From Candidatus Saccharimonadota bacterium (GTDB taxonomy: Bacteria; Patescibacteriota; Patescibacteriia; 2-12-FULL-60-25): a stretch of 32,000 nt of DNA. Shown one piece after another: positions 8,181 to 31,006 of the stretch. The notes below the pieces were generated by a model that saw only the letters and a list, made by a program, of their open reading frames with translations, was not told the origin of the DNA and made no database searches. Position 1 is the first letter of the stretch; each line of letters starts with the position of its first letter. The stretch covers positions 480,001 through 512,000 of the forward strand of contig CP064964.1 in the NCBI GenBank assembly GCA_016699205.1. Direction: 5' to 3'. Made by a program: the position numbers and the translations under genes.

Positions 8181-9088
8181 AGATATCGAGGGTGGAGGAA
8201 ATCGGGTAAAGGACGTTTGCCTATAATATACGGCTCAATGGCCGACCATTCAAGCGCGAGATGCGGCGAGAGCGAGGAACCGATCATATTCCAGGCCCGC
8301 GCGAGCCCTCGACCGATGCGGGAAAAGGCTACGGGATCGGCTGCAATGCGCTCCGGCATGACCTGCATCAGCTCGACGAGAATCGCGCGCCAGGCGAGCT
8401 CGGCGTCTTCTTCTGATTGAAGGCGCTTGTATAAGCGTTCAATTTCTCCGAGTTCTTTTCCAAGCGGCTGGGTTGCCCAGATATCGATCAGAGCAGCCGC
8501 ATCGCGCTTGCGCGACTCCCATGCTTCCGGGTCGGCTTGGAGGCGGCTGGCGATTCCGGGACAGCCGCGGCTCGCGCGAATGAACTCGGCTGAAAATTTT
8601 CCGGAAAGTTCTGCCAATGGAACAGGAGAGAATGCGATCGATGCAAGACGGGAACGTAACGTTGCCGGTAAACGGTCGGGCTGTTCGGTTACAAAGATAA
8701 AAACGGAATCGCCGGAAGGCTCTTCTACGGACTTGAGAAGAGCGTTGGCAGATTCTTCATTGAGACGATCCGCTTCCGGAATGAGCGCGACTTTGAAACC
8801 GCCGCGTGCGGAGGTCATGGTCATACGCGAGACAAACTCACGTGTTTGTTTGATCTTTAATTCTTTACTCCCCTCTTCCCTTTCAAGCGCGATGAAATCC
8901 GGATGGGCGGGCAAGTGATCGATGTTGTCGACGTGTAAAATTTTACTCGCAAAGGAACGAGCGGCGAGACGCTTTCCGAGACCATCAGCGCCATGAAATA
9001 GATAGGCGTGACCGGGGTGATCGGCCAGGGATTCAAGCATGCGGATGATCGGGGCATTTCCGAGGAAATGGTCAAAGGGAATCGGCAT
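8177..9088 (-). CDS. holB: DNA polymerase III subunit delta'
   Basis: 303-aa ORF with AAA+ clamp-loader features: HAYLFHGADGLGKRLAARSFA, an LNEESANALLKSVEEP sensor region and an SRL (SRC-like) motif. There is a 4-nt overlap with the downstream gene. Confidence 0.8.
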   Translation of the reverse strand: MPIPFDHFLGNAPIIRMLESLADHPGHAYLFHGADGLGKRLAARSFASKILHVDNIDHLPAHPDFIALEREEGSKELKIKQTREFVSRMTMTSARGGFKVALIPEADRLNEESANALLKSVEEPSGDSVFIFVTEQPDRLPATLRSRLASIAFSPVPLAELSGKFSAEFIRASRGCPGIASRLQADPEAWESRKRDAAALIDIWATQPLGKELGEIERLYKRLQSEEDAELAWRAILVELMQVMPERIAADPVAFSRIGRGLARAWNMIGSSLSPHLALEWSAIEPYIIGKRPLPDFLHPRYL

Positions 9089-9112
9089 GGCGGAATCCTA
9101 GCACAAACGAAA

Positions 9113-9142
9113 GCGGCCCTCCCCAGAGTTGGGAAGGGCCGC
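9113..9142 (-). terminator. GC-rich terminator hairpin of island gene 9159..10628 (module CTGATC-hairpin-TTTCGTTT)
   Basis: The minus-strand RNA GCGGCCCUUCCC-AACUCU-GGGGAGGGCCGC forms 12 bp (one G.U) and is followed by UUUCGUUU. On the plus strand the same position would be a C.A mismatch, which supports minus-strand function. Confidence 0.7.
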
Positions 9143-9158
9143 GATCAGGAGTGATACT

Positions 9159-10628
9159 TCAGATCTCGAGACCCAGAAGGACCTGGACGAGACCGTCGGC
9201 TGCTGTTGCTGTTGCCGGTCGGAACGAGGCACCGCCCGCACCACGAATGGTGAAGACGATCGCTGGATCGTTGACGTCGGGCGATGAGGCGATCCTTCCA
9301 TCCACGACGCGCAAGCGCCCGTGAATGGCGAGTTCGAGGTAGGCGCCGTGAAAGGAGTGGGCACTTTGCATGGTCGGCCGGAAGCGATCCGAGCCCAGGT
9401 AGCCAAAGCCGATCGAGAGCTCCTGAATCACGTAGTACGAGAGTCCTCCGTGATACCAGATACGCGCCGGCGTGGCATATGGGCTGAAGTCGGGTCCGTC
9501 GTAGGTGACGCCGACGCCGCCCTCCATGTAGAAACCGCGATAGAGCGGAAGCAGTACCGTCGCTTCGAAACCGATACCGGCCGGCGTCGAGGCGAGTCCG
9601 CCGCGCATCTGCGCGAGCGTCGGGTGGAGCGGCGTGAAGCCGACCCAACCGAGCAGCGAGAGCCGCAAGCGCGGGCGCCACCCGTCACCAAAGAGCGTAG
9701 GGTGCTCGTCGGGACGGCGCGTGGGCATCGGAGATGAATCCGACGACGTACGCGAGGACGAGCCGACGGGCTCGATGCCCGAGCGGGCATCGGCTCCTGG
9801 GCACTCGTAATCGACACGTCGCATTCCCTCGTAGACCCAGCGGCCTTCATGGCCAGGCGCGATCTCCGGATGGAATGTCGGGGCGCTCGAGGTGTACGTG
9901 ACGCGTTCGGCGCCGAGCTCGAGGCAGCGTAGACGCGCGGACTGCCGCTCCAAGCTCGCGAGCATCTGGCTGACCAGATCCTCCTGCAAGAAGTAACGCT
10001 CGCGCGTTCGCTCGTCCAAAAGACGGATGGCCTCGATGCGCTCATCGCGCTCCGACGTGATGCGACGATCGAGACCCTCGTCTGCTTCCGTGCGAGCGTC
10101 ATACTCGTCGCGGATCATCCGAGCGAGTTCGGCACCTTCTGGCGTTCGGCAGATGCCGAGTCGTAGCGTGCCGTCCGGCATGAGGATCACGGACTCCGCG
10201 TCCCAGATGCCACGCTGACGCGCGCAGATGCCACGGGCTCGTGCCTGTGCTTCACGCTCGCGCTCCTCGGCTGTGGGCCGAGGAGCACGAGGTTCGGGGT
10301 CTGCGTCGGCCGTTGCGGCTGCGACGACCGGAGCTGCCGGAGCTTCGCAGCCGACGGCCGCACGGCCGCAAGCGTCGCAGAACGCCGCCATGATCTCGGT
10401 GGTGCGCGGCTCGAGTCCGTGACACTCCTCGACGTTGGCAATGCACTGCGGGATGGTTGCATCGGTGACGCAGAGCTCGTACCGACGCGCGCATGCGTCC
10501 ATGCATGCGGCGAGCGGATCGAGCGACTCGAGAAGTCCCGAGTCGGTGCCGGCGTCGTCCTGGGCGGAAACCCCGGAGACGACGGCGAGCTGGCAAATCA
10601 CGAGAAACAGGAACTGGGTGAAACGCAT
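9159..10628 (-). CDS. Exported Cys-rich/coiled-coil protein with OMP-like C-terminal beta-barrel region (island paralog 1)
   Basis: 489-aa GC3-rich ORF preceded by a strong SD (AAGGAGG). Signal peptide MRFTQFLFLVICQLAVVSGVSAQ, a 9-Cys N-terminal region and a charged helical middle. The C-terminal ~170 aa have alternating hydrophobic strands (GWRPRLRLSLLGWVGF, IGFEATVLLPLYRGFYMEGGVGVTY, HSFHGAYLELAIHGRLRV). Confidence 0.7.
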   Translation of the reverse strand: MRFTQFLFLVICQLAVVSGVSAQDDAGTDSGLLESLDPLAACMDACARRYELCVTDATIPQCIANVEECHGLEPRTTEIMAAFCDACGRAAVGCEAPAAPVVAAATADADPEPRAPRPTAEEREREAQARARGICARQRGIWDAESVILMPDGTLRLGICRTPEGAELARMIRDEYDARTEADEGLDRRITSERDERIEAIRLLDERTRERYFLQEDLVSQMLASLERQSARLRCLELGAERVTYTSSAPTFHPEIAPGHEGRWVYEGMRRVDYECPGADARSGIEPVGSSSRTSSDSSPMPTRRPDEHPTLFGDGWRPRLRLSLLGWVGFTPLHPTLAQMRGGLASTPAGIGFEATVLLPLYRGFYMEGGVGVTYDGPDFSPYATPARIWYHGGLSYYVIQELSIGFGYLGSDRFRPTMQSAHSFHGAYLELAIHGRLRVVDGRIASSPDVNDPAIVFTIRGAGGASFRPATATAADGLVQVLLGLEI

Positions 10629-10758
10629 GTCGCCTCCTTGGCTCTGTGCAAGGTCCGACTTCCGGACCCTGAGGCCGCCTGATCGATCGCCACCGGAGGA
10701 GGTAGACGAGGATCAGGCGAACTCAAGGCCGGAAGGATTACCCGGGTGGTAACGGCTT

Positions 10759-10787
10759 TAATTACGATAAAATAATGGTTTTGTCAA
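10759..10787 (-). promoter_or_regulatory. Sigma70-like promoter, TTGACAAAA -35 box, for gene 9159..10628
   Basis: Minus strand reads TTGACA (10787-10782), a 17-nt AT-rich spacer, then TAATTA. It sits in a short AT-rich patch inside GC-rich DNA, ~125 nt upstream of the ATG. Confidence 0.5.
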
Positions 10788-10816
10788 CCCCACCGCAGAG
10801 CTTAGCGAAAACGAAA

Positions 10817-10846
10817 GCGCCCACCCCAGTAAGTCAGGGTGGGCGC
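10817..10846 (-). terminator. GC-rich terminator hairpin of the 190-aa lipoprotein gene (same module as 9113..9142)
   Basis: GCGCCCACCC/GGGTGGGCGC forms a 10-bp stem, flanked by CTGATC on the 5' side and TTTCGTTTTCG on the 3' side of the minus strand. Confidence 0.7.
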
Positions 10847-10875
10847 GATCAGAGATGCCCTTGCGGGCGAAGGAG

Positions 10876-11448
10876 CTAGAGGAGCGAGGAGCAGAGCGGC
10901 AGACGCAGGACGTACCCGCCACCAGGCGAGACGGCCGTCGTCACGATGCTCGAGACGTCCTCGGGGGCGCCGGTCGCGTCGGGGTCGTACCAGACCTCGA
11001 TGCGGACGTTGCGCGACATGGCGGTCGAACCCGCCGGGATGGCCGCGTAGTCGCCGGAGGAGCAGCGGAACCCGAGATCGACCTCGGCGCCGACCCACTC
11101 GGGACGGACGCGCTGGTCGATGTCCGAGCCCGGCGTGTAGACCGTGCCGGTGACCGGCAGGCTGTACGCCGTCGGATCCCAGCCGCTGGCGCAGGAGCCG
11201 AGCGGGCCGTTGGCGGCGTCGAGCACCGTCACGCGGAAGCGCGTCGGGCTCATGCCGTCGGCGCCGCAGTGGCGCCAGGGGGTCGGAGGCGACGTGGTCG
11301 TGGCCGCGTCGGCGAGGACCGTCGGGCCGCTGTCACCCACGGGGGTGACGCCGGCATCCGTGCCGTACGTGGGGCCGTCGGGGCTGGTGTTGCAGCCGGA
11401 GACGAGCGCGACGAGGACGAACGAGACGATGGTGAGGGTGTTCTTCAT
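10876..11448 (-). CDS. Small lipoprotein of unknown function (island)
   Basis: The start was moved to ATG 11448, giving MKNTLTIVSFVLVALVSGC with a lipobox (LVSGC). 190 aa, GC3-rich, with a Thr/Pro-rich linker followed by a probable beta-rich domain. Confidence 0.65.
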   Translation of the reverse strand: MKNTLTIVSFVLVALVSGCNTSPDGPTYGTDAGVTPVGDSGPTVLADAATTTSPPTPWRHCGADGMSPTRFRVTVLDAANGPLGSCASGWDPTAYSLPVTGTVYTPGSDIDQRVRPEWVGAEVDLGFRCSSGDYAAIPAGSTAMSRNVRIEVWYDPDATGAPEDVSSIVTTAVSPGGGYVLRLPLCSSLL

Positions 11449-11640
11449 GATCTTCTGGATCCCTTCTTCATGCCCGATGCGTCGGAGCCGCGTTGATTGT
11501 TTTCGGTTTTGAACTGGAACGTTTGGTTTGAACAAATCTCGCGATTTGTACTCCCCTCGAAGGCCATCAGGTTGATGATGAACTTTGAGGGAAGGAGCAC
11601 CGGTAGAAACCAGTGCTCACTTTCCAGAGTGTGCTTGCCC

Positions 11641-12852
<1,212 letters not shown>

Positions 12853-12994
12853 CTGGACCTCAGCCTTTCTCCCGCTCACGCGAGAGCGAGAATCGAGCAG
12901 TTCTGGTAAGTCACATGACCCACCATCTGGATCTATTAGCCGATACTGGATTCCCGTCTTCACGGGAATGACAGCTACTAAAGCCGGATGGTGT

Positions 12995-13034
12995 GGGGGC
13001 CCGCTCGATCTACAGATGTAGAGAGCGGGCCCCC
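12995..13034 (-). terminator. Long GC hairpin downstream of gene 13045..14505
   Basis: GGGGGCCCGCTC/GAGCGGGCCCCC forms a 12-bp stem enclosing an inner tctaca/tgtaga stem. There is no clear U tract, so it may be a partial terminator or a processing site. Confidence 0.5.
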
Positions 13035-13044
13035 GAGCAGTTGT

Positions 13045-14505
13045 TCAGAACGAGACGCCGCCGCCCAGTGAGAGGACGTAGCCGACTCCATCGACACCGA
13101 CGAAGTGATCGACGTTGGGACGTCGGACCTCGGTGTGGGTGTAGTCGAGGCCGGCCGTGCCCTCGATGTGCAGCCACGGAAGCGGGTTCACCCGAAGGCG
13201 AACTTCCCCACCGAGCTGGAACACGGGCCAGGTGTGCAGGCTGCGACCGATCTGGCCGCCGGGGTTGAACACGGCGGAGGCCGCGAGACCGACGTCGAGG
13301 GCGAACATCTCGTCGAAGCGGAAGGTTGCGCCTGCCGATCCGCCAAAGATGCCCTCGTCACCGATCGTGCCGTCCGGGTTGAACTGGCCGATTCGATCGA
13401 GGAGGTTGCCCGCCCCGACGTATCCGCGCAGGAAGAACCCGAAGTGCTCGACCGGAAGGGCCTCGATCTCGGCGTACACCACTCCGTGAGGAGCGAGGAT
13501 GCCGGCCGGAGCCGTGATGCCGAGACCATGGAAGGCCAGGCCGAGGTGGAAGCGGAGATGCCAGCCATTGCCGGAACCGACGCTGTCACGCAGGTAGTCC
13601 TCGCGAGCTGCGAGACATGCCTGCATCACCTGGTCGCGCGTCATCGTCGGATAGTCGTCCGGGTCGATGTCGCAGATGACCGAGAGGCCACCTTCGAGAG
13701 CGCCTAGCCGCGTCAGGATCGAGGTGATCTGTCCACGCATGGTGTTCAGATCGCCGCGGAACTCGTCGAGGTCACGACGGAACTCGTCGAAGCTGTTGCA
13801 GAAGCCGGCCCATGCCGCATCCCGGACCACGCCTTCCGGCAGGGTCGGGCTGCAGTAGTAGGTGAGGAACGCGTAGTTGCGTCCCACATCCTCAAGGTCG
13901 TCTTCTGCTTCCTCGCGAGCGATCGGAGGAGCTGCCGGATTGGAGTAGTCGACACAGTGAATGATCACCAGCGTGACTCCGGGCTCGGCGCGCCGTCGGC
14001 TCTCGCCTTCGGAACGCGCACGATTCCAGGGAACCTCCACGGGCTCCGTGCCGTCCTCGCAGATGACCTGTCGATTCCACCCGCGACCTTCCATGTGATG
14101 GGGGCCACGAGCTTCCACGACGAGTCGGCGACGAGTACGCGGAGCGCTGGGCGCTTCCGGATCACGGGGGCAGACCTCGACCTCGCGGCACATGGTGAAG
14201 GCCTCGCGGACTTCGCCCATATTGGTGAAGTGCGGCCGGCCGCCCGTGCCGTTCAGGCGATCGTAGAGCGTCTCGTAGAACGTCATGACAGTTCGATCTG
14301 CATCGACACAGGTGTTGGTGAGGGCCGCTGCATCGTCGAGGCTGATCGTGCCGTCCTCGTACAGCTCGTTGAAGTGCTGGAGACAGGGCGGGGACGCTCC
14401 CTCGGGGGGAACGATACGATCCTGAGCGTCCGCGATGGACGCGAGGCCGAGGGTGAGCACGAAGCCGATCGCGAACGAGACGAGGAACAGGTTGGTGGTC
14501 TTCAT
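13045..14505 (-). CDS. Exported Cys-containing/coiled-coil protein with OMP-like C-terminal beta-barrel region (island paralog 2)
   Basis: 486-aa GC3-rich ORF with SD GGAGAGGAG and signal peptide MKTTNLFLVSFAIGFVLTLGLASIADAQ. A helical segment (FDEFRRDLDEFRGDLNTMRGQITSILTRL) precedes C-terminal alternating strands (GWHLRFHLGLAFHGLG, HTWPVFQLGGEVRLRV). The protein ends ...GYVLSLGGGVSF with a terminal Phe, like an OMP beta-signal. Confidence 0.7.
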   Translation of the reverse strand: MKTTNLFLVSFAIGFVLTLGLASIADAQDRIVPPEGASPPCLQHFNELYEDGTISLDDAAALTNTCVDADRTVMTFYETLYDRLNGTGGRPHFTNMGEVREAFTMCREVEVCPRDPEAPSAPRTRRRLVVEARGPHHMEGRGWNRQVICEDGTEPVEVPWNRARSEGESRRRAEPGVTLVIIHCVDYSNPAAPPIAREEAEDDLEDVGRNYAFLTYYCSPTLPEGVVRDAAWAGFCNSFDEFRRDLDEFRGDLNTMRGQITSILTRLGALEGGLSVICDIDPDDYPTMTRDQVMQACLAAREDYLRDSVGSGNGWHLRFHLGLAFHGLGITAPAGILAPHGVVYAEIEALPVEHFGFFLRGYVGAGNLLDRIGQFNPDGTIGDEGIFGGSAGATFRFDEMFALDVGLAASAVFNPGGQIGRSLHTWPVFQLGGEVRLRVNPLPWLHIEGTAGLDYTHTEVRRPNVDHFVGVDGVGYVLSLGGGVSF

Positions 14506-14624
14506 GGGAACTCCTCTCCGAACCTTCCGGCCCGGTGGTCTGTGACCCCGGGTGGAGGTCGGGTTGATCGTTCTGAATCTGAAACTTGGAAATAGCGAGA
14601 ACCTGTCATTATTGACCGGTCCTT

Positions 14625-14654
14625 GAGCCGTCCCGCCAGGAGACGGAACGGCTC
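14625..14654 (-). promoter_or_regulatory. 13-bp stem-loop in the long 5' UTR of gene 13045..14505
   Basis: Minus-strand GAGCCGUUCCGUC-UCCU-GGCGGGACGGCUC forms 13 bp including two G.U pairs. No U tract follows. Confidence 0.5.
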
Positions 14655-14697
14655 AAATACCTGTCTTAGGCACGATTAGCCATTGAAAGAACGTATT

Positions 14698-14726
14698 ACA
14701 ATATCACTTTTTAAGCTTTTTGTCAA
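14698..14726 (-). promoter_or_regulatory. Sigma70-like promoter (proximal copy), TTGACAAAAAGC...TGaTATTGT
   Basis: TTGACA (14726-14721), a 17-nt spacer ending in TGa, then -10 TATTGT (14703-14698). Confidence 0.6.
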
Positions 14727-14821
14727 GGCTTATAAACAATGACTTTGTCGAAGGTTTAACAGCCTCAGACCTTAGCCTTTTTCTCGTAAAATCGGGTATT
14801 TCCAGCGCTAATTAACAACAT

Positions 14822-14850
14822 AATATAACACGTTTTTGGCTTTTTGTCAA
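14822..14850 (-). promoter_or_regulatory. Sigma70-like promoter (distal copy), TTGACAAAAAGC...TGtTATATT
   Basis: TTGACA (14850-14845), a 17-nt spacer ending in TGt, then -10 TATATT (14827-14822). About 22 of 29 nt are identical to the proximal copy. Confidence 0.6.
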
Positions 14851-14897
14851 TAAAACATTCATTAAACGCAAGTTAGCCAAAATCGCTAAAAACAGAA

Positions 14898-14932
14898 CAC
14901 GACCCCTCCGCCAGCGTGGCAAAGGGGTCGTG
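14898..14932 (-). terminator. Rho-independent terminator of gene 14945..15505
   Basis: cacgacccct/aggggtcgtg forms a 10-bp stem followed by TTCTGTTTTT on the minus strand. Confidence 0.7.
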
Positions 14933-14944
14933 CAGAGATAGTTG

Positions 14945-15505
14945 CTAGTCGCCGCGGCCGACTAGCCTGAGATGGGACGGAGTCGCCCTCATCCGCTTGG
15001 TGGGACGGGTGTTGCGAACGGCTTCCCCGAGGGAAGCGGGCTTGGCCGGCTTATGGTCGCGGATCCAGCCCTCGGCAGAGGGATGGCGCTGCGCGACGAA
15101 GAGAACGATCTCCTCGATGCGCTCGAGCGCCTCCAGATGAGCCTCTTCCTGCTTGCTGCCCGCGGCGCAGGCATCGACATTGCGCTTGAGACGCATCATC
15201 AGACGGATGAGACCGCCCTCGGGGCAGTTGTGGAAGTCGACGATGTGGAGCGCGTTGGCGAGGAGTGCCTCGCGGACGCGTGTGTCGGCGAGCTTGATGT
15301 CGGGCCGGAAGCCCTTGAGAACCTCCTCGGGGAACCATCGGCTCAGGCAGACGATGGCCCAGACGAAGTCGCCGCACTCCTCGAGCGGGAGATGCTCGAC
15401 GAAGGGGGCCGAAACGCCGTTGACGACGTTGATTTCCGGCATCACGAGGTCGCGCAGCGCGGGCGAAATTACCTTGGTCCAAAAGGAACGATCCCGATTT
15501 TCCAT
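14945..15505 (-). CDS. Cytoplasmic orphan protein (island), unknown function
   Basis: The start was moved to ATG 15505 (MENRDRSFW), which has SD GAGGAG and lies downstream of the predicted TSS. 186 aa, relatively GC-rich, no signal peptide, basic C-terminal tail (RNTRPTKRMRATPSHLRLVGRGD). I recognise no motif. Confidence 0.55.
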   Translation of the reverse strand: MENRDRSFWTKVISPALRDLVMPEINVVNGVSAPFVEHLPLEECGDFVWAIVCLSRWFPEEVLKGFRPDIKLADTRVREALLANALHIVDFHNCPEGGLIRLMMRLKRNVDACAAGSKQEEAHLEALERIEEIVLFVAQRHPSAEGWIRDHKPAKPASLGEAVRNTRPTKRMRATPSHLRLVGRGD

Positions 15506-15531
15506 GATTCTCCTCTTCTCGGGGACCAAAA

Positions 15532-15560
15532 AATATATCAAAATATTGCGATTTTGTCAA
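15532..15560 (-). promoter_or_regulatory. Sigma70 consensus-like promoter for gene 14945..15505
   Basis: TTGACA (15560-15555), a 17-nt spacer ending in TGa, then TATATT (15537-15532). It lies immediately after the terminator of the upstream gene. Confidence 0.65.
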
Positions 15561-15569
15561 TGGATACAA

Positions 15570-15590
15570 AAGAACCCCGGAGGGGTTCTT
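15570..15590 (-). terminator. Rho-independent terminator of the E/K-rich gene
   Basis: AAGAACCCC-TCC-GGGGTTCTT followed by TTGT on the minus strand. It overlaps the stop codon by 2 nt. Confidence 0.65.
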
Positions 15591-17418
15591 AGGCGGCTTT
15601 CTTAACTAACTTTGGACGTGCTTTCTTTGGACTAACTTCCTCGATACCCATGATTTTGTCGGCTTCTGCTATGCGGGCCTTGGCCTCTTGGTCGCCATCC
15701 ATGTCGTAGAAGGCGCGGTCGAGGACATAAGCGGTGGCGAGATCGCGCGTGCCAAAGACCTCTTGCAAGGCGTCGAGCTGATCCTGTTCCATCCCCTGCA
15801 TGCGAGCGGCAATGCTGTTCCAGAGTTCGGCGGCACGCGGGTATTCTTTGCGAACCGTGTTGATGTCTGCCGCGCGTTCCTTTTGGAACTCGAGCGTGAC
15901 GCTTTCTTCTTCCTTCACATCCTTAGGCATCGAGGGCGATTCTGCCTCCGGTTGATAGAGTCGGACCGGCTCGGCACGCGACATGGCGTCGCTGATGCTA
16001 CCGGTACCCATCGAGACTTTGCGGGATGGGACGCGGCTCATCGGACGTTTGGCACGAATCTCTTTTTCATCTTGGATGACACCACCTTCTGCGTTGCGGA
16101 CAACGCCGCTCTTATAGTCTTGATCGATAGCGGCGACTTCCGGATTCTCAGCGATGAACTCGCGATCCGTAGCCTGCTGCGCTGCTTCTTCCACATCGAT
16201 TCTCTGGCGCTTACCTTTGGCCGATAAGCTCTGCATCAAGTCGGGCTTCACACCCATGACTTCACGGTCTACTTCTTCCAGTTTTTTCCCGGACTCGATC
16301 CAACTGTCCAGTAAATCATACGTTGGAACATTGGCGAGCTTCGCCAAACCGCGGCGGATGCGCGTCATGAAACCGCCATTCAATACGAGCTTCTCGTATG
16401 CATCCTCCGGCTCCATGCCCGTAAGATCGCGTAAACGATTGCCGGTTGCGGCGTGCTCGGCTTCCAACTTCTTTAGCTTGGCAAGAGAGCGTTTGCGGGC
16501 TGGGTCCGTCTCTGCAGACGCGCGCTCGGCGCTGACATTGGCTTGGATGCGCTTGCCAGCTTCCGCGCGTTCCTGCTTGGACTGGACTTCCTTTTGGTAT
16601 TTTTCCAAGGCTTCACGGCTGACTTCACGAGCTTTTTGCATGCTCTCGGCTTTCGCCGATGGCTGTTTCAGAAGCTCGGAAGTCTTGGCTTCCGTTTCCT
16701 CGATATCGCGCTTGATGCGCTCGGCCCATTCTTTATCCAGCTCCTCCATCTCCTTGCGAGCGATTTCCTGCTTTTGATTCTCGTTCTCAAGGTCAACCAA
16801 TTCCTTCACCATTTCTTGGCGAGGATTCATGGAGACCGTCTCCTGCTTTTTCGCGCGCTTCTTGGGCTTCTCAACATAACCAAGAACCTCTTCTTCCATC
16901 ATGCGCTTGCTCTCAATATCCTGGAGCTCCGAGACAAGGGCCATGGTGTCAACCTTCTCTGGCTTAGGCTCTGCATCGATCGCATCGGCCATTTTGGAAA
17001 TCGTTTCCTTCACGGATTTACGCTCGTCTTCTTTCAATAAGTCATTGATCACTTTCTCTTGAGCAACTTCACGCGAAACGCGCTCGCGACGTTTGGCGGG
17101 CTCGAGAGCTGCACGGGCATTCTCAAAATCGCTTTTGCCTGTCATTTTCAAAAATTGCTTCTTTTTCTCTTCTTTCAACATGCTTTCTGCAGCCTCATGC
17201 GCTGTAAAAGCCTGCTCTTCATTCATAGCGCCAAGACGCTCGCGTAAAGCCGCTTCCTCCATCTCCTCTTTCATTGCGGAAGAGGTCTCGGCTTGGAATC
17301 GTTCGGCTTTTTGCCCTCGACTCTCTTTTCGTTTTTTGGGAGATTGTTCCGCACCGGGCAAATCTTGCCGGCTTGGCATTTTAGGCACATCTTCAAACTT
17401 CTTCATTTTGCGTGGCAT
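15589..17418 (-). CDS. Glu/Lys-rich, largely helical protein of unknown function
   Basis: 609 aa from ATG 17418 (MPRKMKKFEDV). The GTG at 17442 lies upstream of the predicted -10 (TGTTATACT, 17441-17433). The sequence is low-complexity and charged, with no motif I recognise. Confidence 0.55.
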   Translation of the reverse strand: MPRKMKKFEDVPKMPSRQDLPGAEQSPKKRKESRGQKAERFQAETSSAMKEEMEEAALRERLGAMNEEQAFTAHEAAESMLKEEKKKQFLKMTGKSDFENARAALEPAKRRERVSREVAQEKVINDLLKEDERKSVKETISKMADAIDAEPKPEKVDTMALVSELQDIESKRMMEEEVLGYVEKPKKRAKKQETVSMNPRQEMVKELVDLENENQKQEIARKEMEELDKEWAERIKRDIEETEAKTSELLKQPSAKAESMQKAREVSREALEKYQKEVQSKQERAEAGKRIQANVSAERASAETDPARKRSLAKLKKLEAEHAATGNRLRDLTGMEPEDAYEKLVLNGGFMTRIRRGLAKLANVPTYDLLDSWIESGKKLEEVDREVMGVKPDLMQSLSAKGKRQRIDVEEAAQQATDREFIAENPEVAAIDQDYKSGVVRNAEGGVIQDEKEIRAKRPMSRVPSRKVSMGTGSISDAMSRAEPVRLYQPEAESPSMPKDVKEEESVTLEFQKERAADINTVRKEYPRAAELWNSIAARMQGMEQDQLDALQEVFGTRDLATAYVLDRAFYDMDGDQEAKARIAEADKIMGIEEVSPKKARPKLVKKAA

Positions 17419-17439
17419 AGGAGAATGCCGCCAGTATAA

Positions 17440-17469
17440 CACAAATCCCGCCGATCGGCGGGATTTGTG
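17440..17469 (-). terminator. Rho-independent terminator after rplT
   Basis: Perfect 13-bp inverted repeat cacaaatcccgcc-gatc-ggcgggatttgtg, 12 nt downstream of the rplT stop. Confidence 0.75.
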
Positions 17470-18029: not shown

Positions 18030-18590
18030 TTAGGATTTGCGTCCGACAATCGCCGTGACATTACCGCCCGTGCGGGTGATCTGCTGCTCGATGAAGAGTT
18101 CGTACTCTTTGGTGAGTTCTGCAAGGTATTCCTGGATTTTCTTTCTGGCGATGTCGCCATGTTCTTTCTCGCGACCACGCAGGCGGATCTCGATATTGAG
18201 CTTGTGACCGTCGGCAAGGAAACCCTTACCTTGGTTGATGCGAGTATCGAAGTCCCCCTGTCCCATCTTTACGGAGAGTCGGATGCCTTTCACGTCAACC
18301 TTTTTGGCGTGGGCCTTTTGGGCCTTGATCTCCTTCTCCTTATGATATTTGAATTGCCCGTAATCGAGGAGTTTGCAGACCGGCGGATTGGCCTTGGGTG
18401 AAACCTCGACGAGGTCATACCCGCGTTCAACCGCGGTTGCGAGTGCTTTCTCGACGGTCATCGGACCCAAGAAGGCTCCGTTTTCGTCGATCACACTCAC
18501 CTCGGGCGACTTGATCTGATCATTGACCAAGTAGTTTACGAGTTCTTCTTTTTTTTGATAGCCGCCGCGGCGGCGATGGTGAATTCTCAT
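18030..18590 (-). CDS. infC: Translation initiation factor IF-3
   Basis: IKSPEVSVIDENGAFLGPMTVEKALATAVERGYDLVEVSPKANPPVCKLLDYGQFKY is canonical IF-3. The ATG at 18590 is taken as the start, but a non-ATG start nearby cannot be excluded. Confidence 0.85.
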   Translation of the reverse strand: MRIHHRRRGGYQKKEELVNYLVNDQIKSPEVSVIDENGAFLGPMTVEKALATAVERGYDLVEVSPKANPPVCKLLDYGQFKYHKEKEIKAQKAHAKKVDVKGIRLSVKMGQGDFDTRINQGKGFLADGHKLNIEIRLRGREKEHGDIARKKIQEYLAELTKEYELFIEQQITRTGGNVTAIVGRKS

Positions 18591-18601
18591 TAGAAAATGG
18601 G

Positions 18602-19024
18602 TGGTGGAGATGCCGGGTATCGCACCCGGGTCCGAACATAAGACCAAGACGTTTCATTCACAAGCTTGGACGACTCATCCCAACGCACGTCGGGTGTCAT
18701 TCCTGCGGCATGGAGCCGACGAGAGCGCAGGAACCAAGTTTCCGGGGCCTGTCGTCATGAGCGGGAAACCGCGCTCGCGACCAAGTTCCCATTTATGACA
18801 GTCGATCTCTACCTCGGGAACAGAGGAAGAGGGACTGGCCGGCCACAGTCGCGGTTAGGCGAGGACCGGAGCGAAGGACGGGGCGCGGAAAGCCGAAGCG
18901 ATCGCGTCCTGAACCTTTGAAATGACGTTGGCAGTTGTCATTGTACCTACGTGGATTACGGACTCGTAGGCGCGTCCGGCTTGCAACGAAATGGAACGAA
19001 CGTCGTCGATGCTGATTCATCCCC
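18602..19024 (-). ncRNA. ssrA: tmRNA (ssrA)
   Basis: The 5' end GGGGATGAATCAGCATCGACG pairs with the 3' end ...GGACCCGGGTGCGATACCCGGCATCTCCACCA. This gives an acceptor stem with a G3.U70 wobble, a T-arm and CCA. An in-frame tag reading frame runs GCC(18932)...TAA(18855), predicting ANVISKVQDAIASAFRAPSFAPVLA. It lies directly next to smpB. Confidence 0.85.
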
Positions 19025-26452: not shown

Positions 26453-28639
26453 CTAGGATGCAAGGATGCGCTGCTTCAAATTGGAGACGTTTTGGACTTC
26501 CTGCTCCAATTCCGCGACTTTTTGCTTCAGACTGATGTTTTCTACCTTGGTATGCGATAGTTCCCCCTCCAAAATCGAGATCTTATGCTTCAAGCCATTG
26601 ATCTGCTGGTCAAAATAGAGCTCACGGACTCGCGCATCAATGACTTTATCGATCGAATCCTCGTAATTTTCCTTGGTGGCACCCTTTTTCTTGATTTGAT
26701 CGATGACAAATTTGAGGACTTCCTCGCCTTCCACCTCGCCTTTGGTCGACAACTGTTTAATCAGCAACTCGCCTTCCGCACCAAAAATAGCTTTCTGCGA
26801 GTACTTCAGGAGCTGTTCGTAACGCATCATGTCCCCCGACTTCTCCCCTGCCCACTTTTCCTCGACGAGTAGCTTGATGCGGTTGAAGCCTTTTTGAATT
26901 TCCAGCTGCTTGTCGGCAAAGCGGAGCGCGTACTCGGCGAGTTCGTTGCGCTCTTCTTTTGATCCCGGCTCGGAATTCATCGGCAAACCATTGTCGGCGA
27001 CGAGCTTGCGCATCCCCTCTAGATCCAAAGGACCGAGCGAACCAAAGTTGAACGACAATTTTTGCTTGTAAAACTTCCCAAGAGCCGCATCGCCCTGAAG
27101 CGGGATTGCCGCAGCCTCATGCTGGCGGGCCAGTATCATTTCTTTAATGCGTTCCGCGGCATCATCGCCACCGCCCGTGATGCCAAAGGCGAATTCATCG
27201 CCACCGACGCGATACGCCTCCACGAGTATTCCTTCTTTGGATGCTTCCGCGGCGATTCCGTCGAGAAGTTCCGCGGCTTTTTTAATCGCGATGTTTCCGG
27301 TCTTATCGTTTCCTTCCTTATCGAAATACTTCAGGAACGCGAGGTCGATGTAGACGACGCCGACGGGCTTCCCACTCTCTAAACCGCTTTCCATCTGCTT
27401 GAACATGCGGCCGCGTTCCGCAAGACCCGTGGCCGGATTGCGGTCGGCGGCTTCAATTTCCGCATCGAGTACGGCGAGCTCGATATCGTCGGCGTCTGCG
27501 CCGGCGGCTTTGAGTTCATCGACCTTGGCGCGCTTCTTGGCGATCTCGGCAAAGCCGCGTGTTGGCTTGGGAGGTTCAAATCCATTCTCCGTACGCTCCG
27601 CCGCCGACGCCTCGCCCTTCAAGATCACATCAGGAAAGCCCGGGATACCGAGCTTCTGCTGGGCGGCAAACTCGCCGAGCGTTCTATCGATGCCGCGCTG
27701 GGTGTCACGACGGCTTGCGTACTGCCGGCGGGCTTCACTCTCCGCGAGGCGGTGTCTGGCGTCGATATCGGCCGCGGCAAATCGCTGTTGGAATGTTTCA
27801 AAATCGGGCGGGTCCTTTTCATCCGCATTTCGAAATAATTCTGCGAGCACCTTTTGATACTTCAAATAAAACTCCTCGGCCTTTGCCGGTTGCGTATCGA
27901 TCATTTCCTGCATGCGCTTCATGCGGCTTTCCACTTTTTGGCGATCGTTCTGTTGCTGCAACAGTTCCTTCACGACGCCGATAGCAGGACCTTCCGGCTT
28001 TTCCGCAGAAAATAATGCCTTACGTTCTTCCGGCTTCAGCGCATTGATGATTCCAACCATGTCGGACTGGCTCGCCAAACTTGCTTCCATTGGAGCGTCG
28101 GGACCGATGGCAGCTAGGGCGTCTTTTGCATCGCTGAGAGCGTGCGTAATTTTCTCCGCCGTTGCGCGATCGGCATTTTTGAGACGGACACTGAAGTCAT
28201 TTCCGGATGTTCGATAGACGTCAAACTGGGAGGGCTTGAGGACAGTCGCGAGCGTCTTTCTAATACGAGCCGCGGCAGCTTCAAGCGCCTTGTCTCCACT
28301 TGAGTGATCTCCTTCCGCATTCACGCGATCAAGCTCACCCATGTTTACGAGGAGGTAATGTGTTTTGAGATCTTCCGGACGGGGGGCAAGTATTTGCTCT
28401 TCCCCCTCCCCTTCAAAGCCACGCTTGGTTAAGTCCTCGACCATGTCGCGGCCAAAGTAGTCACCTTTCCATGAACCCGTATTATCATGTTGGGCATCAA
28501 AAAGCTCGAGGCGCCCATCCATAATCTTCCGCTTCTTGCTCTCCGGCGGAAGCTCATCCCTAAGCCGAACAAGCTCGGAACGCGAGCGGTCACGCTGCCT
28601 CAGAGCGGCGGGTTTTTCTTGGCGAATTTCTCCGTCCAT
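26453..28639 (-). CDS. Large helical protein with two GGDEF-like (palm/nucleotidyl cyclase) domains and a C-terminal coiled coil
   Basis: 728 aa from ATG 28639. Domain 2 reads DRNPATGLAERGRMF...VVYIDLAFLKYFDKEGNDKTGNIAIKKAA...AYRVGGDEFAF, with GGDEF encoded at 27191-27205. Domain 1 is degenerate: HYLLVNMGELDRVNAEGDHSSGDKAL...VYRTSGNDFSV. The C-terminus has heptad-like repeats (LKHKISILEGELSHTKVENISLKQKVAELEQEVQNV). Confidence 0.65.
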   Translation of the reverse strand: MDGEIRQEKPAALRQRDRSRSELVRLRDELPPESKKRKIMDGRLELFDAQHDNTGSWKGDYFGRDMVEDLTKRGFEGEGEEQILAPRPEDLKTHYLLVNMGELDRVNAEGDHSSGDKALEAAAARIRKTLATVLKPSQFDVYRTSGNDFSVRLKNADRATAEKITHALSDAKDALAAIGPDAPMEASLASQSDMVGIINALKPEERKALFSAEKPEGPAIGVVKELLQQQNDRQKVESRMKRMQEMIDTQPAKAEEFYLKYQKVLAELFRNADEKDPPDFETFQQRFAAADIDARHRLAESEARRQYASRRDTQRGIDRTLGEFAAQQKLGIPGFPDVILKGEASAAERTENGFEPPKPTRGFAEIAKKRAKVDELKAAGADADDIELAVLDAEIEAADRNPATGLAERGRMFKQMESGLESGKPVGVVYIDLAFLKYFDKEGNDKTGNIAIKKAAELLDGIAAEASKEGILVEAYRVGGDEFAFGITGGGDDAAERIKEMILARQHEAAAIPLQGDAALGKFYKQKLSFNFGSLGPLDLEGMRKLVADNGLPMNSEPGSKEERNELAEYALRFADKQLEIQKGFNRIKLLVEEKWAGEKSGDMMRYEQLLKYSQKAIFGAEGELLIKQLSTKGEVEGEEVLKFVIDQIKKKGATKENYEDSIDKVIDARVRELYFDQQINGLKHKISILEGELSHTKVENISLKQKVAELEQEVQNVSNLKQRILAS

Positions 28640-28670
28640 ACTGGCCAAAGAATAGCATAAAAACGACGAG

Positions 28671-28698
28671 CCCCGGACCAACCTATGTTGGACCGGGG
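28671..28698 (-). terminator. Terminator hairpin of the 89-aa satellite ORF
   Basis: CCCCGGTCCAAC-ATAG-GTTGGTCCGGGG forms a 12-bp stem with one mismatch, followed by CTCGTCGTTTTTA on the minus strand. Confidence 0.6.
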
Positions 28699-28722
28699 CG
28701 TAGAGACGGAAAGCGCGAGCGC

Positions 28723-28992
28723 TCAGAGTATGGAAGCGATGTCCCCCACGGAGGGCGTGGGAGTCTGCTTCATGGTGGGCATGACAGCGATGGCGGCGAT
28801 GGCGGCGGCCTCGGGTAGCGTCTTCAGGTCGTGAGCGCTCTCGAGACGGATGAAGTCGGAACCTCGGTAGCCGAGGTGGTCGTTCATCTTGTTCTGCAGA
28901 GATGCGAGCTGCGTCTCCGGAAGGGTAAGCCCCCTCGGAAGATCCATGAAGAGCCTGTATGCCTGTTCGCCGTACGACATCGTGTCACCCAT
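28723..28992 (-). CDS. Small GC3-rich orphan protein (satellite cassette)
   Basis: 89-aa ORF (MGDTMSYGEQAYRLF...AAAIAAIAVMPTMKQ...). Its codon third positions are visibly G/C-rich compared with its neighbours. It has its own TTGACAAAA box and terminator, and coding status is plausible but unproven. Confidence 0.45.
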   Translation of the reverse strand: MGDTMSYGEQAYRLFMDLPRGLTLPETQLASLQNKMNDHLGYRGSDFIRLESAHDLKTLPEAAAIAAIAVMPTMKQTPTPSVGDIASIL

Positions 28993-28998
28993 ATCCGC

Positions 28999-29027
28999 AC
29001 CTCATCACAATAATAATGTTTTGTCAA
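28999..29027 (-). promoter_or_regulatory. TTGACAAAA -35 box with a weak -10 (TGaTGAGGT), upstream of the 89-aa ORF
   Basis: TTGACA is at 29027-29022, with TG at spacer positions 15-16 as in the other copies. The -10 is poor. The geometry would place the TSS at or near the ATG (28992), giving a leaderless mRNA. Confidence 0.4.
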
Positions 29028-29029
29028 TC

Positions 29030-31006
29030 TTACGGCTTTTTTACCACACCCTTACCTTCTGCGGATTCGTCGCTGATCAAATCTGTTGTGAGAGCGGGCT
29101 TGGCGCGTACCAAAGGCTCGGTGGTTGCGGCGTCGGTAGCCGTTAAACGCGTCTCGCCGAGCAAGCGGGCAAAGCGGCCGATATCGAGGTCAGAAGGTGT
29201 GAGGGAGATATCAAAGCGGGCGGTTAAATCACGGATATCCTCTGGCATGCGGTTTAATTTCCAGCGAACGGTGCGCGTCGCTTCTTCATAGACGATATCA
29301 CCTGCATCAACGAGCGACTGCTCGCTCCAAGCAACATTGGGCGGCAAGGCTGCGGAGACCTCGAGATTATCGAGACCGTGGAGTTTTTTCTCGATCGACC
29401 ATTCAATACGATAGACCGTGGTTTTTCCGGCGACTGGCGGCAATGGACCGGTTCCGAGCGGTGCGCCTTCTTCCGTAAAATAGCGGGCGATGGCTTTTAC
29501 GTCGGCGTCGGTGCGATAGCGGACGCGGATCGGGTTGGCGCGGAGAACGCGGTTCACTTTATCCTTGCCGACGGTCGCGAGCGTACCTGTGAGGTCGAGG
29601 CTGATCAGCGCGTCCTTGGTTCCGCTGGTCACGCCGAGCGAGGGTAGCGTGACTTCAATGGTCCCCTCTTCTCCGGGGGCCAGCTCGGCAAAATCCGGAA
29701 TGGTATTTTTGTCGTAGCGGATGGTCTGGATGCGGGGTTTAGTACTTGTTGTGCCGCGCGCGGAGGCTTCAAGCTCGGTCCAATCGACGAGAGTTGTACC
29801 TGTGGCCGATACGCCGTTCACGAGAGACTCGACGCCTAATGTTACGGTTACATTTCCGAGCGTTTCCGGGCTGACATTTTTATAGGCGATAGCGATACGC
29901 AGAGAATCGCCCGGCTGCATGGTGCGGTCGGAGTCGGAACCGTTGGCGACCATGCGTAAACTTAGGTCGCCAGCCAAGACCGGGACCATCGATTCCTGGC
30001 TATAGAGCGTGAGGAACTCTGTGCCGCGCAATCGACCGACGCGAACTTTAAAAACGGATTCACCGGAGCTACCGGAGACAAAGGAGCCCGCGAAATTCCA
30101 TGTGCTTGTAGCACTGGGGGCGAGCGTCGAGAGCGTCTGTTCCCATTCATGACCATCAGCTGTCGGCAAAAGTGTGGTACCTGTTGAAGCTGTTGGGATG
30201 AAGCCTGTTGGAAATGCGTAGCGGACGATCAAGCCGGATAATTCTTGGCTGCCGCGATTGGCGAGTTCAAAGGTAAAAGGCACTTGGTCGCCAGCAATGG
30301 TTTTGGCGGGCAAGAGAACGCGTCCATCAAAAACCGAAGCGCCGTAATCAAGCGATTGCGTGGCGAGGGATTCACGTGAACGAGTTTGACCGGAGGGTCG
30401 ATAGGTGGCGATGGCTTGAAATGCGCTTTTAGCGCCGAGTGATCCAAGGAAAATACCCCGTACCGTGATCTGACCTTCTGCCGCCGGAGCGAGCATGCCA
30501 AGTTTCCAGGCCGTGTTCTGGGTTTCCGTTGGCCATGGGTCGGTGTAGGTCACTTGGAAATCGGCGGGCCAGGCGAGACGGAGCTCGGCATCGGAAACAG
30601 GCTGGAAGGCACGGTTGCGATACTTCACGACGAACGATTGTTCTTGGCCGAGCGTGATCGATGAAGGACCTTCAATCGCTACCTCAAGACCGAGATCATC
30701 GATTTCCGTATTTGGCTGGAGCCAGACAAGACCGAGCCAAGCAACGGCGCTCGTCATCGCACACAAAACAAGCAGCCAGGTGAAAAATCGGCGGATGCGA
30801 TGCGGCTTGGAGTGCTCGAGCGTAGCAAGATCTTTTTTGCCGCCTTCTGCGAGATAGATTTTTTCCAATCCCCTGGCGACTTCATCGCCTTTCTTTTTTC
30901 TGTCATCGGTTTCATCCTCGGAATAGGAAAAAAACGCCTTCTTCCATGGGCGTGGAGGCGGAGGCGGAAGGCGTTTTTTTGAATGTCCTGAGGAGGGCGT
31001 CGTCAT
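29030..31006 (-). CDS. Membrane-anchored surface protein with DUF11/CARDB-like Ig-fold repeats
   Basis: 658 aa with a Pro/Lys-rich cytoplasmic N-terminus and one TM (FFTWLLVLCAMTSAVAWLGLVWL). Repeated segments follow the pattern 'G..v.f.v.y.N.g...l..v.v...P.gf' (ITLGQEQSFVVKYRNRAFQPVSDAELRLAWPADF; AGDQVPFTFELANRGSQELSGLIVRYAFPTGF; PGDSLRIAIAYKNVSPETLGNVTVTL). Confidence 0.6.
   Translation of the reverse strand: MTTPSSGHSKKRLPPPPPRPWKKAFFSYSEDETDDRKKKGDEVARGLEKIYLAEGGKKDLATLEHSKPHRIRRFFTWLLVLCAMTSAVAWLGLVWLQPNTEIDDLGLEVAIEGPSSITLGQEQSFVVKYRNRAFQPVSDAELRLAWPADFQVTYTDPWPTETQNTAWKLGMLAPAAEGQITVRGIFLGSLGAKSAFQAIATYRPSGQTRSRESLATQSLDYGASVFDGRVLLPAKTIAGDQVPFTFELANRGSQELSGLIVRYAFPTGFIPTASTGTTLLPTADGHEWEQTLSTLAPSATSTWNFAGSFVSGSSGESVFKVRVGRLRGTEFLTLYSQESMVPVLAGDLSLRMVANGSDSDRTMQPGDSLRIAIAYKNVSPETLGNVTVTLGVESLVNGVSATGTTLVDWTELEASARGTTSTKPRIQTIRYDKNTIPDFAELAPGEEGTIEVTLPSLGVTSGTKDALISLDLTGTLATVGKDKVNRVLRANPIRVRYRTDADVKAIARYFTEEGAPLGTGPLPPVAGKTTVYRIEWSIEKKLHGLDNLEVSAALPPNVAWSEQSLVDAGDIVYEEATRTVRWKLNRMPEDIRDLTARFDISLTPSDLDIGRFARLLGETRLTATDAATTEPLVRAKPALTTDLISDESAEGKGVVKKP

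Follow-up and report, generated by a model that had tools for sequence, protein, structure and literature searches.

Two genes, here called A and B, lie at the two ends of the region 9,159-14,505 in a stretch of 32,000 nucleotides (nt) of contig CP064964.1 (assembly GCA_016699205.1, positions 480,001-512,000 of the forward strand), which we refer to as the window. Both encode exported proteins in which the last ~170 residues are predicted to form an eight-stranded β-barrel of the outer-membrane type, and judged from their models they would constitute a new, narrowly distributed family of barrels resembling outer-membrane proteins (OMPs), fused to recombining ectodomains and occurring in a candidate phyla radiation (CPR) lineage that is regarded as monoderm. 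We favour the view that A and B are surface proteins of modular build, anchored by their barrels in the envelope of the bacterium itself, and that they act together with two lipoproteins encoded between them, although we place this view slightly short of an even chance. An earlier note on this DNA had described two open reading frames (ORFs) with a common architecture, and both were indeed found on the minus strand, with lengths of 489 and 486 amino acids (aa). Their parts are as follows:

9159..10628, minus strand: gene A, 489 aa (ORF, family of 15 relatives, AlphaFold2 model, Foldseek)
10563..10628, minus strand: signal peptide of A, aa 1-22, predicted cleavage between VSA and QDD (read from the sequence, kept in the A-family alignment)
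9714..10028, minus strand: mid module of A, aa 201-305 (segment identities and A-family alignment)
9162..9671, minus strand: C-terminal barrel of A, aa 320-489, eight predicted transmembrane strands, ending in LLGLEI
13045..14505, minus strand: gene B, 486 aa (ORF, identity to IPH19_02475, AlphaFold2 model, Foldseek)
13565..14421, minus strand: exchangeable ectodomain of B, approximately aa 29-314 (blastn, per-gene identities, module identity matrices)
13048..13560, minus strand: C-terminal barrel of B, aa 316-486, ending in SLGGGVSF, a β-signal-like motif

Each protein starts with a Sec-type signal peptide that was read directly from the sequence and is conserved in its family, ending in VVSGVSA before QDD in A and in LASIADA before QD in B. 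In A, the signal peptide is followed by a Cys-rich helical head, a small β unit, a long helix, a dimorphic mid module, a linker and the barrel, and in B by a Cys-containing helical head, a β unit, helices and the barrel. At the level of predicted secondary structure, the layout common to both runs from the signal peptide and the Cys-containing helical head over a Pro/Ala-rich linker of low confidence to a small β unit, and continues with a long helix (residues 163-238 in A and 230-277 in B according to AlphaFold2), a linker and the barrel. An RG(I)W...DGT motif is common to the small β units of A and B. Conserved cysteines are confined to the N-terminal ~300 residues, with 12 invariant or nearly invariant positions in A, nine in B and none in the barrels, pointing to an exported, oxidising location of the ectodomains. 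Sequence reading, the families and the structural models thus agree with the signal peptides, the Cys-containing N-terminal region, the long helix and the linker that had been described before.

For structure prediction with AlphaFold2, the family alignments of 14 (B) and 16 (A) sequences were used as input. The mean predicted local distance difference test (pLDDT) score was 67.6 for B and 71.6 for A, and the confident part of both models was a C-terminal block of eight long strands (residues 316-485 in B and 320-488 in A), preceded by a low-confidence linker. The predicted strands are 12-21 residues long and their pLDDT is mostly 80-90. At this level of prediction, both blocks would be closed antiparallel barrels of eight strands. 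When the model of B was compared to the PDB with Foldseek, OmpW (2f1v) was the top match (E=1e-6, template modelling (TM) score 0.65, root mean square deviation 4.0 over 190 columns), followed by Ail, OmpX, OprG, NspA and the transmembrane domain of OmpA. The model of A matched OmpX, Ail, NspA and the transmembrane domain of OmpA with TM scores of 0.5-0.59 (0.57-0.59 for OmpX and NspA). Every match at E <= 0.001 was a membrane barrel, namely 30 PDB entries for B, five PDB entries for A and 15 entries of BFVD for B. In the viral structures of BFVD, Foldseek retrieved exclusively phage-encoded OMP barrels and nothing for the N-terminal domains.

The hydrophobicity of alternate residues is consistent with a membrane location of these barrels. 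We divided the residues of each predicted strand by the face to which they point and used 2000 within-strand shuffles per protein as control. The outward face had a mean Kyte-Doolittle hydropathy (KD) of +1.73 in B and +2.18 in A and contained four and one charged residues, respectively, among ~60 (1/57 in A), whereas the inward face had a KD of -0.21 in B and -0.76 in A and contained 12 and 13 charged residues. The observed separation was reached by 25 of the 2000 shuffles for B and by none of the 2000 for A. Both proteins hence have a hydrophobic, lipid-facing belt and a polar interior, from which it follows that the barrel should be embedded in lipid; soluble barrels show the reverse pattern. 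The eight strands of the models, the Foldseek matches to OMPs and this dyad pattern together uphold the proposal of the earlier note that both proteins have the same architecture and end in an OMP-like barrel of ~170 residues, and they provide, as a prediction, the structure that the note had asked for.

The C-termini are of the kind that outer-membrane proteins carry as β-signal, ending in an aromatic or hydrophobic residue. The end of B, SLGGGVSF, fits the pattern polar-x-G-x-x-hydrophobic-x-aromatic, and the β-signal likeness that the earlier note had seen in its last residues, GGGVSF, extends to the family: among the 20 intact B-type relatives, 17 have a terminal F, following the pattern G-x-G-[VFL]-[SET]-F. 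In A-type proteins the terminal motif is G-[LVF]-E-[IF], with I or F as the last residue. In a distant homologue of A (locus L004, 13934-15439), the last barrel strand, which ends in LGFSYF, is followed by ~30 extra residues, indicating that the β-signal-like motif is not always C-terminal. In another genome (locus L002, 10001-11482; P0011, K8R04_04840), a homologue of B loses similarity over the last two barrel strands and has an Arg-rich tail at its end; it looks frameshifted, by either a sequencing error or mutation to a pseudogene.

The barrel strands of A and B had also been paired by eye in the earlier note, and these pairs proved to be no better than chance. BLASTP between A and B gave E=0.037, and three runs of hhalign gave E-values of 0.045-0.15 or another register, with the best match out of register. 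Reciprocal cross-family scores with hidden Markov models (HMMs) did not exceed 6.6 bits, while shuffled and reversed controls reached 8.8 bits. Sequence homology of the A-type and B-type barrels was rejected as shown, since all three methods gave non-significant results, and on their models the two would be alike in fold and layout only.

A mosaic structure of these proteins emerged from the comparison with a conspecific genome (GCA_963851785, locus L001), whose housekeeping proteins are 99-100% identical to those of the window. At the protein level, A and the small lipoprotein of the same gene cluster are 96% identical and the second, MopE-type lipoprotein is 90% identical between the two genomes, compared to 54% for B. 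In a blastn alignment, the two genomes are 98.5% identical as far down as position 14422, where the B signal peptide ends; no similarity is detectable between 14421 and 13565, a segment that encodes B residues ~29-314 and has its counterpart at L001 10085-10989; and from 13564, the start of the B barrel, similarity is back at 95.8%. The ectodomain of B is swapped exactly between signal peptide and barrel in this genome. Within the B family, the proteins group by identity in conflicting ways, depending on which of the modules N1, N2, mid and barrel is compared. The window's B groups by its barrel with relatives P0003 and P0005 (92-93%), by its N1 module with P0004 and P0006 (71-76%), and by its mid module with P0008 (62%), whose barrel is only 35% identical. 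These discordances indicate frequent recombination. In the A family, the mid module (residues 201-305) is dimorphic, its two allelic forms sharing less than 20% identity. As far as can be read from the sequences, recombining modules in both A and B are enclosed by a signal peptide and a barrel that are conserved, and conserved ends around a recombining middle would be the pattern of exposed, interaction-determining surface proteins.

Single-chain transmembrane β-barrels count as characteristic of outer membranes and of the Omp85 pathway or β-barrel assembly machinery (BAM). The hypothetical protein IPH19_02475 from a Candidatus Uhrbacteria bacterium (NCBI lineage Patescibacteria group, Parcubacteria group) matches B with 100% identity, which confirms the CPR backbone that had been suspected from the sequence. 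The rest of the window is typical of the backbone of a small genome (tpiA, glyS, frr, holB, infC, rplT, smpB, tmRNA, thrS). As the earlier note had presumed, such a backbone is not expected to have an outer membrane: Patescibacteria are treated as monoderm in the literature (PMC11665869, PMC12102498, bioRxiv 10.1101/2021.05.31.446380), and outer-membrane complex proteins were not found in surveys of the CPR (PMC11665869, PMC9166423, PMC12102498). Members of the CPR are widely described as host-dependent epibionts (PMC11665869). In the literature searched on β-barrel or outer-membrane proteins in CPR, Patescibacteria, Parcubacteria or Uhrbacteria, we found no description of a family like the present one. 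Genes for outer-membrane biogenesis were absent from the 32-kb window and the ~20-kb related loci, which represent a tiny part of the genome.

The conservation of the barrels gives an indication of their orientation. In both families, the loops on the side opposite to the chain ends are conserved nearly like the strands (0.36 versus 0.41 in B-type and 0.50 versus 0.54 in A-type proteins), and in the B-type family the turns on the side of the termini are the least conserved parts and have the most insertions. These turns are short (two residues in T1 of A and B and in T2 of A), and the opposite loops are longer. The hypervariable domain is attached to a chain end, and together with the conservation pattern of the barrel this suggests that the side of the termini is the exposed side, which would imply insertion from outside. 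In all modes of barrel insertion known to us, the chain ends do not leave the side from which the protein arrived.

In the explanation that we favour, A and B would be exported by the Sec pathway, as indicated by their signal peptides, and their N-terminal ~300 residues would form a head rich in disulfides, followed by a small β unit and a stalk made of a long helix. The last ~170 residues would fold into a barrel similar to OmpX and OmpW that enters a lipid layer of the cell's own envelope from outside, presumably with no canonical BAM machine involved, so that the variable domain stays at the cell surface. The barrel would thereby act as conserved anchor, and the exposed N-terminal part would determine interactions and be reshuffled module by module between strains. 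The two lipoproteins, probably transcribed together with B, would be membrane-tethered partners. A likely role of the proteins is strain-specific attachment to, or recognition of, a host, partner cell or substrate, or else the evasion of phages. We regard as doubtful the wider proposition that a CPR clade without outer membrane or BAM uses OmpX-like barrel anchors, inserted from outside into either its own membrane or the outer membrane of a host, to display recombining strain-specific ectodomains as a modular attachment device.

Several points weigh against this explanation. We know of no pathway that inserts single-chain β-barrels in a monoderm or into a cytoplasmic membrane. All structure is predicted from shallow alignments of 14-16 sequences, and the predicted TM score of the models is 0.38. 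The search with the Pfam family OMP_b-brl (PF13505) that the earlier note had proposed gave a weak outcome for B, with 18.1 bits compared to a gathering threshold of 28.7, and no match in the A family (0/16), so that both proteins fall short of this threshold; weak matches were present in ten of the 14 B relatives (best E=1.1e-5). PDB sequence searches with both barrel profiles yielded chance-level matches only. The conserved terminal Phe is a feature of BAM-dependent proteins and better fits the presence of a cryptic outer membrane. The few insertions in the A-type family lie in loops and not in turns, and the topology argument as a whole is suggestive only, since the positions behind it are few (11-17 turn residues).

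The alternative that we take most seriously, and still consider unlikely, is that the clade possesses an Omp85-type insertase and an outer membrane, or outer lipid layer, that has gone unrecognised. A and B would then be ordinary OMPs with a periplasmic N-terminal domain, a stalk and a C-terminal barrel in the manner of OmpM/SlpA. Besides the conserved C-terminus, the short turns on the side of the termini and the longer opposite loops are as in canonical OMPs, and two lipoproteins are encoded alongside. The N-terminal domain, long helix and barrel follow each other as they do in OmpM (PMC10628300), and the CPR belong to the Terrabacteria, for which OmpM was proposed to be ancestral (bioRxiv 10.1101/2021.05.31.446380). 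This stands against the monoderm consensus and the CPR surveys cited above, and neither an SLH nor another peptidoglycan-binding domain was found in the proteins with Pfam and NCBIfam. Furthermore, a periplasmic domain is not expected to be hypervariable and to swap modules, nor are surface loops expected to be as conserved as strands. The lack of biogenesis genes in the window and related loci also speaks against an outer membrane, with the restriction that so small a sample of the genome is covered.

If A and B were secreted and a diderm host received their barrels in its outer membrane from outside, which is the option that the earlier note had found most attractive, the ectodomain would bridge host and epibiont, perhaps by binding to the cassette lipoproteins on the Uhrbacteria membrane. 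The described dependence of CPR bacteria on hosts (PMC11665869) is in line with this idea. With the chain ends on the side of insertion, the variable domain would be placed between the cells, which fits the mosaic, strain-specific ectodomain as well as the conserved far-side loops, and a fast turnover of the exposed domain is expected of host-range determinants. On the other hand, nothing in the sequence separates a host outer membrane from the own envelope as target. As established for the folding of OMPs, spontaneous insertion into an outer leaflet covered with lipopolysaccharide is unfavourable, and we are not aware of any precedent, so that we rate this possibility as rather improbable, below that of a cryptic outer membrane.

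Still less probable in our view is that the C-terminal domain is a soluble or oligomerising β domain, for instance a ligand-binding barrel or a component of a surface-layer lattice, and that its resemblance to OMPs results from convergence or from a bias of AlphaFold. The shallow alignments and low predicted TM score would allow this, as would the lack of a Pfam match at threshold and of sequence relatives in the PDB, and the loops conserved at one barrel end might make up a binding site. However, all 16 strands have a hydrophobic outer face with hardly any charge and the interior is charged, opposite to soluble barrels. Strands of 12-21 residues and Foldseek matches that at E <= 0.001 are all membrane barrels likewise argue for a membrane domain.

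A foreign origin can be judged from the distribution and base composition of the gene cluster. The four genes form a cassette in the order B, MopE lipoprotein, small lipoprotein and A, which adjoins holB in every related genome examined. This synteny was observed in GCA_963851785, GCA_021413945, CAYZVS01 and two ENA metagenome contigs that represent one distant lineage (loci L003 and L004), and all inspected loci, L001-L007, are syntenic with the window; at least five independent assemblies, from at least four distinct genomes, have the cassette in this position. Housekeeping proteins of the window are 80-95% identical to those of L002/L007 (GCA_021413945) and 75-90% identical to those of L005. 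In the distant lineage, the identity is 42% for HolB, 49% for the MopE lipoprotein and 26% for the B homologue (E=7e-28), and the A homologue was detected over the barrel; in L004 the MopE lipoprotein is more conserved than HolB.

An exhaustive HMM search of 1.84 billion cluster representatives with the B barrel profile retrieved 13 proteins at E <= 0.001, of which ~10 have the same architecture. Two family members carry an organism name, both Ca. Uhrbacteria, and every match that could be placed taxonomically is Uhrbacteria-like. Searching 185,579 GTDB species genomes with the same profile gave three loci, two of them labelled 'Gammaproteobacteria', and neither search revealed relatives of the B barrel outside this Uhrbacteria clade. 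One of the two labelled loci, L005 (CAYZVS010000001.1, 'uncultured Gammaproteobacteria bacterium'), has a full Uhrbacteria neighbourhood with 90% identity for GlyS, 84% for Frr and 76% for HolB, and the other, L006 (CAZYKJ010000064.1, with the same title), is a contig of 4.9 kb that contains cassette-side genes only. By their gene content, both metagenome-assembled genomes appear to be taxonomically mislabelled.

The GC content is 64-66% at ~9000-14000 compared to 52-56% outside, and the GC content of third codon positions (GC3) is 0.74-0.95 in the cassette compared to 0.51-0.66 in the backbone, with raised values extending to the adjacent gene for a 198-aa protein. The cassette has ~65% GC in L001 and L002 as well, and 60-63% in L004 over a backbone of 47% GC. 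The excess of 10-15 percentage points covers positions 9100-15541 in the window, 10001-15400 in L001, 10001-15500 in L002 and 10001-15500 in L004. A GC offset that is kept in long-diverged lineages gives no sign of recent transfer, and its occurrence in every lineage indicates that it is maintained and no relic of transfer. Its cause may be strong codon selection towards high expression, or else a recombination hot spot with GC-biased gene conversion.

No flanking repeats were found around the cassette, no tRNA gene is adjacent (the tRNAs are 7 kb away), family scans of the cassette genes and their neighbours revealed no integrase, and no relatives of the cassette were found on viral contigs. 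A mobile element was rejected on account of the missing direct repeats, tRNA and viral relatives, and contamination by a diderm bin on account of the synteny in several independent assemblies. Of the 'island' in the earlier note, the atypical base composition holds, while a foreign or recent origin does not, because the cassette is syntenic in all related genomes examined; neither patchy presence nor marks of mobility were seen. The note's suggestion of non-functional cargo is excluded, as the ORFs are intact, the barrels conserved and the cassette syntenic in these genomes. The cassette reads as an old, vertically inherited, clade-specific envelope module, because it is syntenic in all related genomes examined, its GC excess travels along and it lacks mobility marks. 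That a chimeric assembly produced the segment, or that it is a recent foreign island or cargo decaying after its arrival from a diderm donor, as its GC and GC3 values and its MopE-type repeats, which are best known from GC-rich diderm bacteria, might suggest, is highly improbable in view of its intact ORFs and conserved barrels, its identical position in independent assemblies even on a 47% GC backbone, the missing marks of mobility and the restriction of the B barrel to this clade.

The other features of the locus are:

11641..12852, minus strand: Cys-rich MopE lipoprotein, lipobox GLAA followed by C, four MopE-type CxDNDCDG repeats, C-terminal domain of unknown type
10876..11448, minus strand: small lipoprotein, start put at an internal ATG, lipobox LVSG followed by C (read from the sequence)
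10817..10846, minus strand: terminator-like hairpin after the small lipoprotein gene
9113..9142, minus strand: terminator-like hairpin after gene A, related in sequence to the hairpin at 10817-10846
14698..14850, minus strand: two sigma-70-like promoter matches upstream of B (TTGACA, 17 nt, TATATT or TATTGT, extended TG; repeat family D4)
14945..15541, minus strand: gene for a 198-aa protein without evident signal peptide, with its own promoter and terminator, GC3 0.81, fast-evolving

The MopE lipoprotein matches the Pfam family PF11617 (E=2.6e-19), and the small lipoprotein, with a GC3 of 0.95, is conserved in L001, L002, L004 and L005. NCBIfam gave no match for any of the four cassette proteins. 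Promoter-like sites upstream of B and terminator-like hairpins after the small lipoprotein gene and after A suggest two transcription units, one comprising B and both lipoprotein genes and the other A alone. A promoter-like motif of 37 nt (TTGACA, 17 nt with TG, TATATT) occurs three times on the minus strand (14691-14727, 14815-14851 and 15525-15561), with two copies upstream of B and one upstream of the 198-aa protein gene. The terminator regions 9099-9123 and 10803-10827 have a 25-nt sequence in common that is 80% identical (repeat D15). Upstream of the cassette, the 198-aa protein and a Lys/Glu-rich protein of 617 aa (15589-17442, minus strand) are 46% and 39% identical to their counterparts in L002, in which the flanking housekeeping proteins are 80-95% identical; both evolve as fast as the cassette. 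Neither protein had a family match, and the 198-aa protein may be part of the cassette module.

Elsewhere in the window, Rfam detected a full-length tmRNA beside smpB (18602-19024, minus strand, 82.6 bits) that was absent from the ARAGORN output. The mechanically called ORF of infC (18030..18647, TTG start) overlaps this tmRNA, and therefore the true infC start is probably further downstream. At 26453-31006 (minus strand), a 742-aa protein with a GGDEF domain and a 658-aa protein with DUF11 repeats are encoded, the latter probably being a surface protein.

If the wider proposition of barrel anchors in a clade without outer membrane or BAM holds, it would extend the use of β-barrel membrane proteins beyond the diderm, mitochondrial and plastid context. 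A conserved barrel family in a supposedly monoderm phylum would mean that either some CPR bacteria have an unrecognised outer lipid layer, which would bear on the debate about the diderm-to-monoderm transition in Terrabacteria, or barrels are used without BAM, which would bear on membrane-protein biogenesis and on the attachment of epibionts to their hosts. The significance is limited by the confinement of the family to a small clade and by the predicted nature of all structural evidence. The exact swap of the B ectodomain marks likely specificity determinants of an uncultured CPR lineage and thereby provides concrete targets for host-range and cultivation studies.

Among known systems, the small eight-stranded OMPs (OmpX/Ail, OmpW/OprG, NspA and the N-terminal domain of OmpA; Pfam OMP_b-brl, MBB clan) are similar to A and B in the predicted eight antiparallel strands, the hydrophobic outer belt and polar interior, the short turns on the side of the termini and the C-terminal G-x-x-hydrophobic-x-Phe motif. 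They differ in sequence, B falling short of the family threshold and A showing no similarity, and in that the barrel of A and B is the C-terminal third of a protein of ~490 aa with a large N-terminal domain. Moreover, the far-side loops of A and B are conserved instead of hypervariable, and their phylum is regarded as lacking an outer membrane. The outer-membrane tethers OmpM/SlpA of diderm Terrabacteria (PMC10628300) have the same order of signal peptide, N-terminal domain, helical stalk and C-terminal barrel, and A and B occur in Terrabacteria as well. In contrast to OmpM/SlpA, A and B do not have an SLH domain, as neither Pfam nor NCBIfam gave a match in their N-terminal regions, and the N-terminal domain is Cys-rich and hypervariable. 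A single long helix and a barrel of eight strands are predicted in place of the trimeric coiled-coil stalk and porin-sized barrel.

Type V autotransporter adhesins resemble A and B in carrying a variable, modular N-terminal domain on a conserved C-terminal barrel anchor. The barrels of type Va have 12 strands with a helix through the pore, and those of type Vc have four strands per chain. The predicted eight-stranded barrel of A and B would be too narrow for the passage of a passenger domain, and its Foldseek TM scores with autotransporter barrels were as low as 0.2-0.3. The Opa proteins of Neisseria and other mosaic surface antigens combine an eight-stranded barrel with strain variation by recombination of alleles, as do A and B according to their models and identity patterns. 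Opa proteins vary in the surface loops of the barrel, whereas A and B keep the barrel including its loops and exchange whole N-terminal modules.

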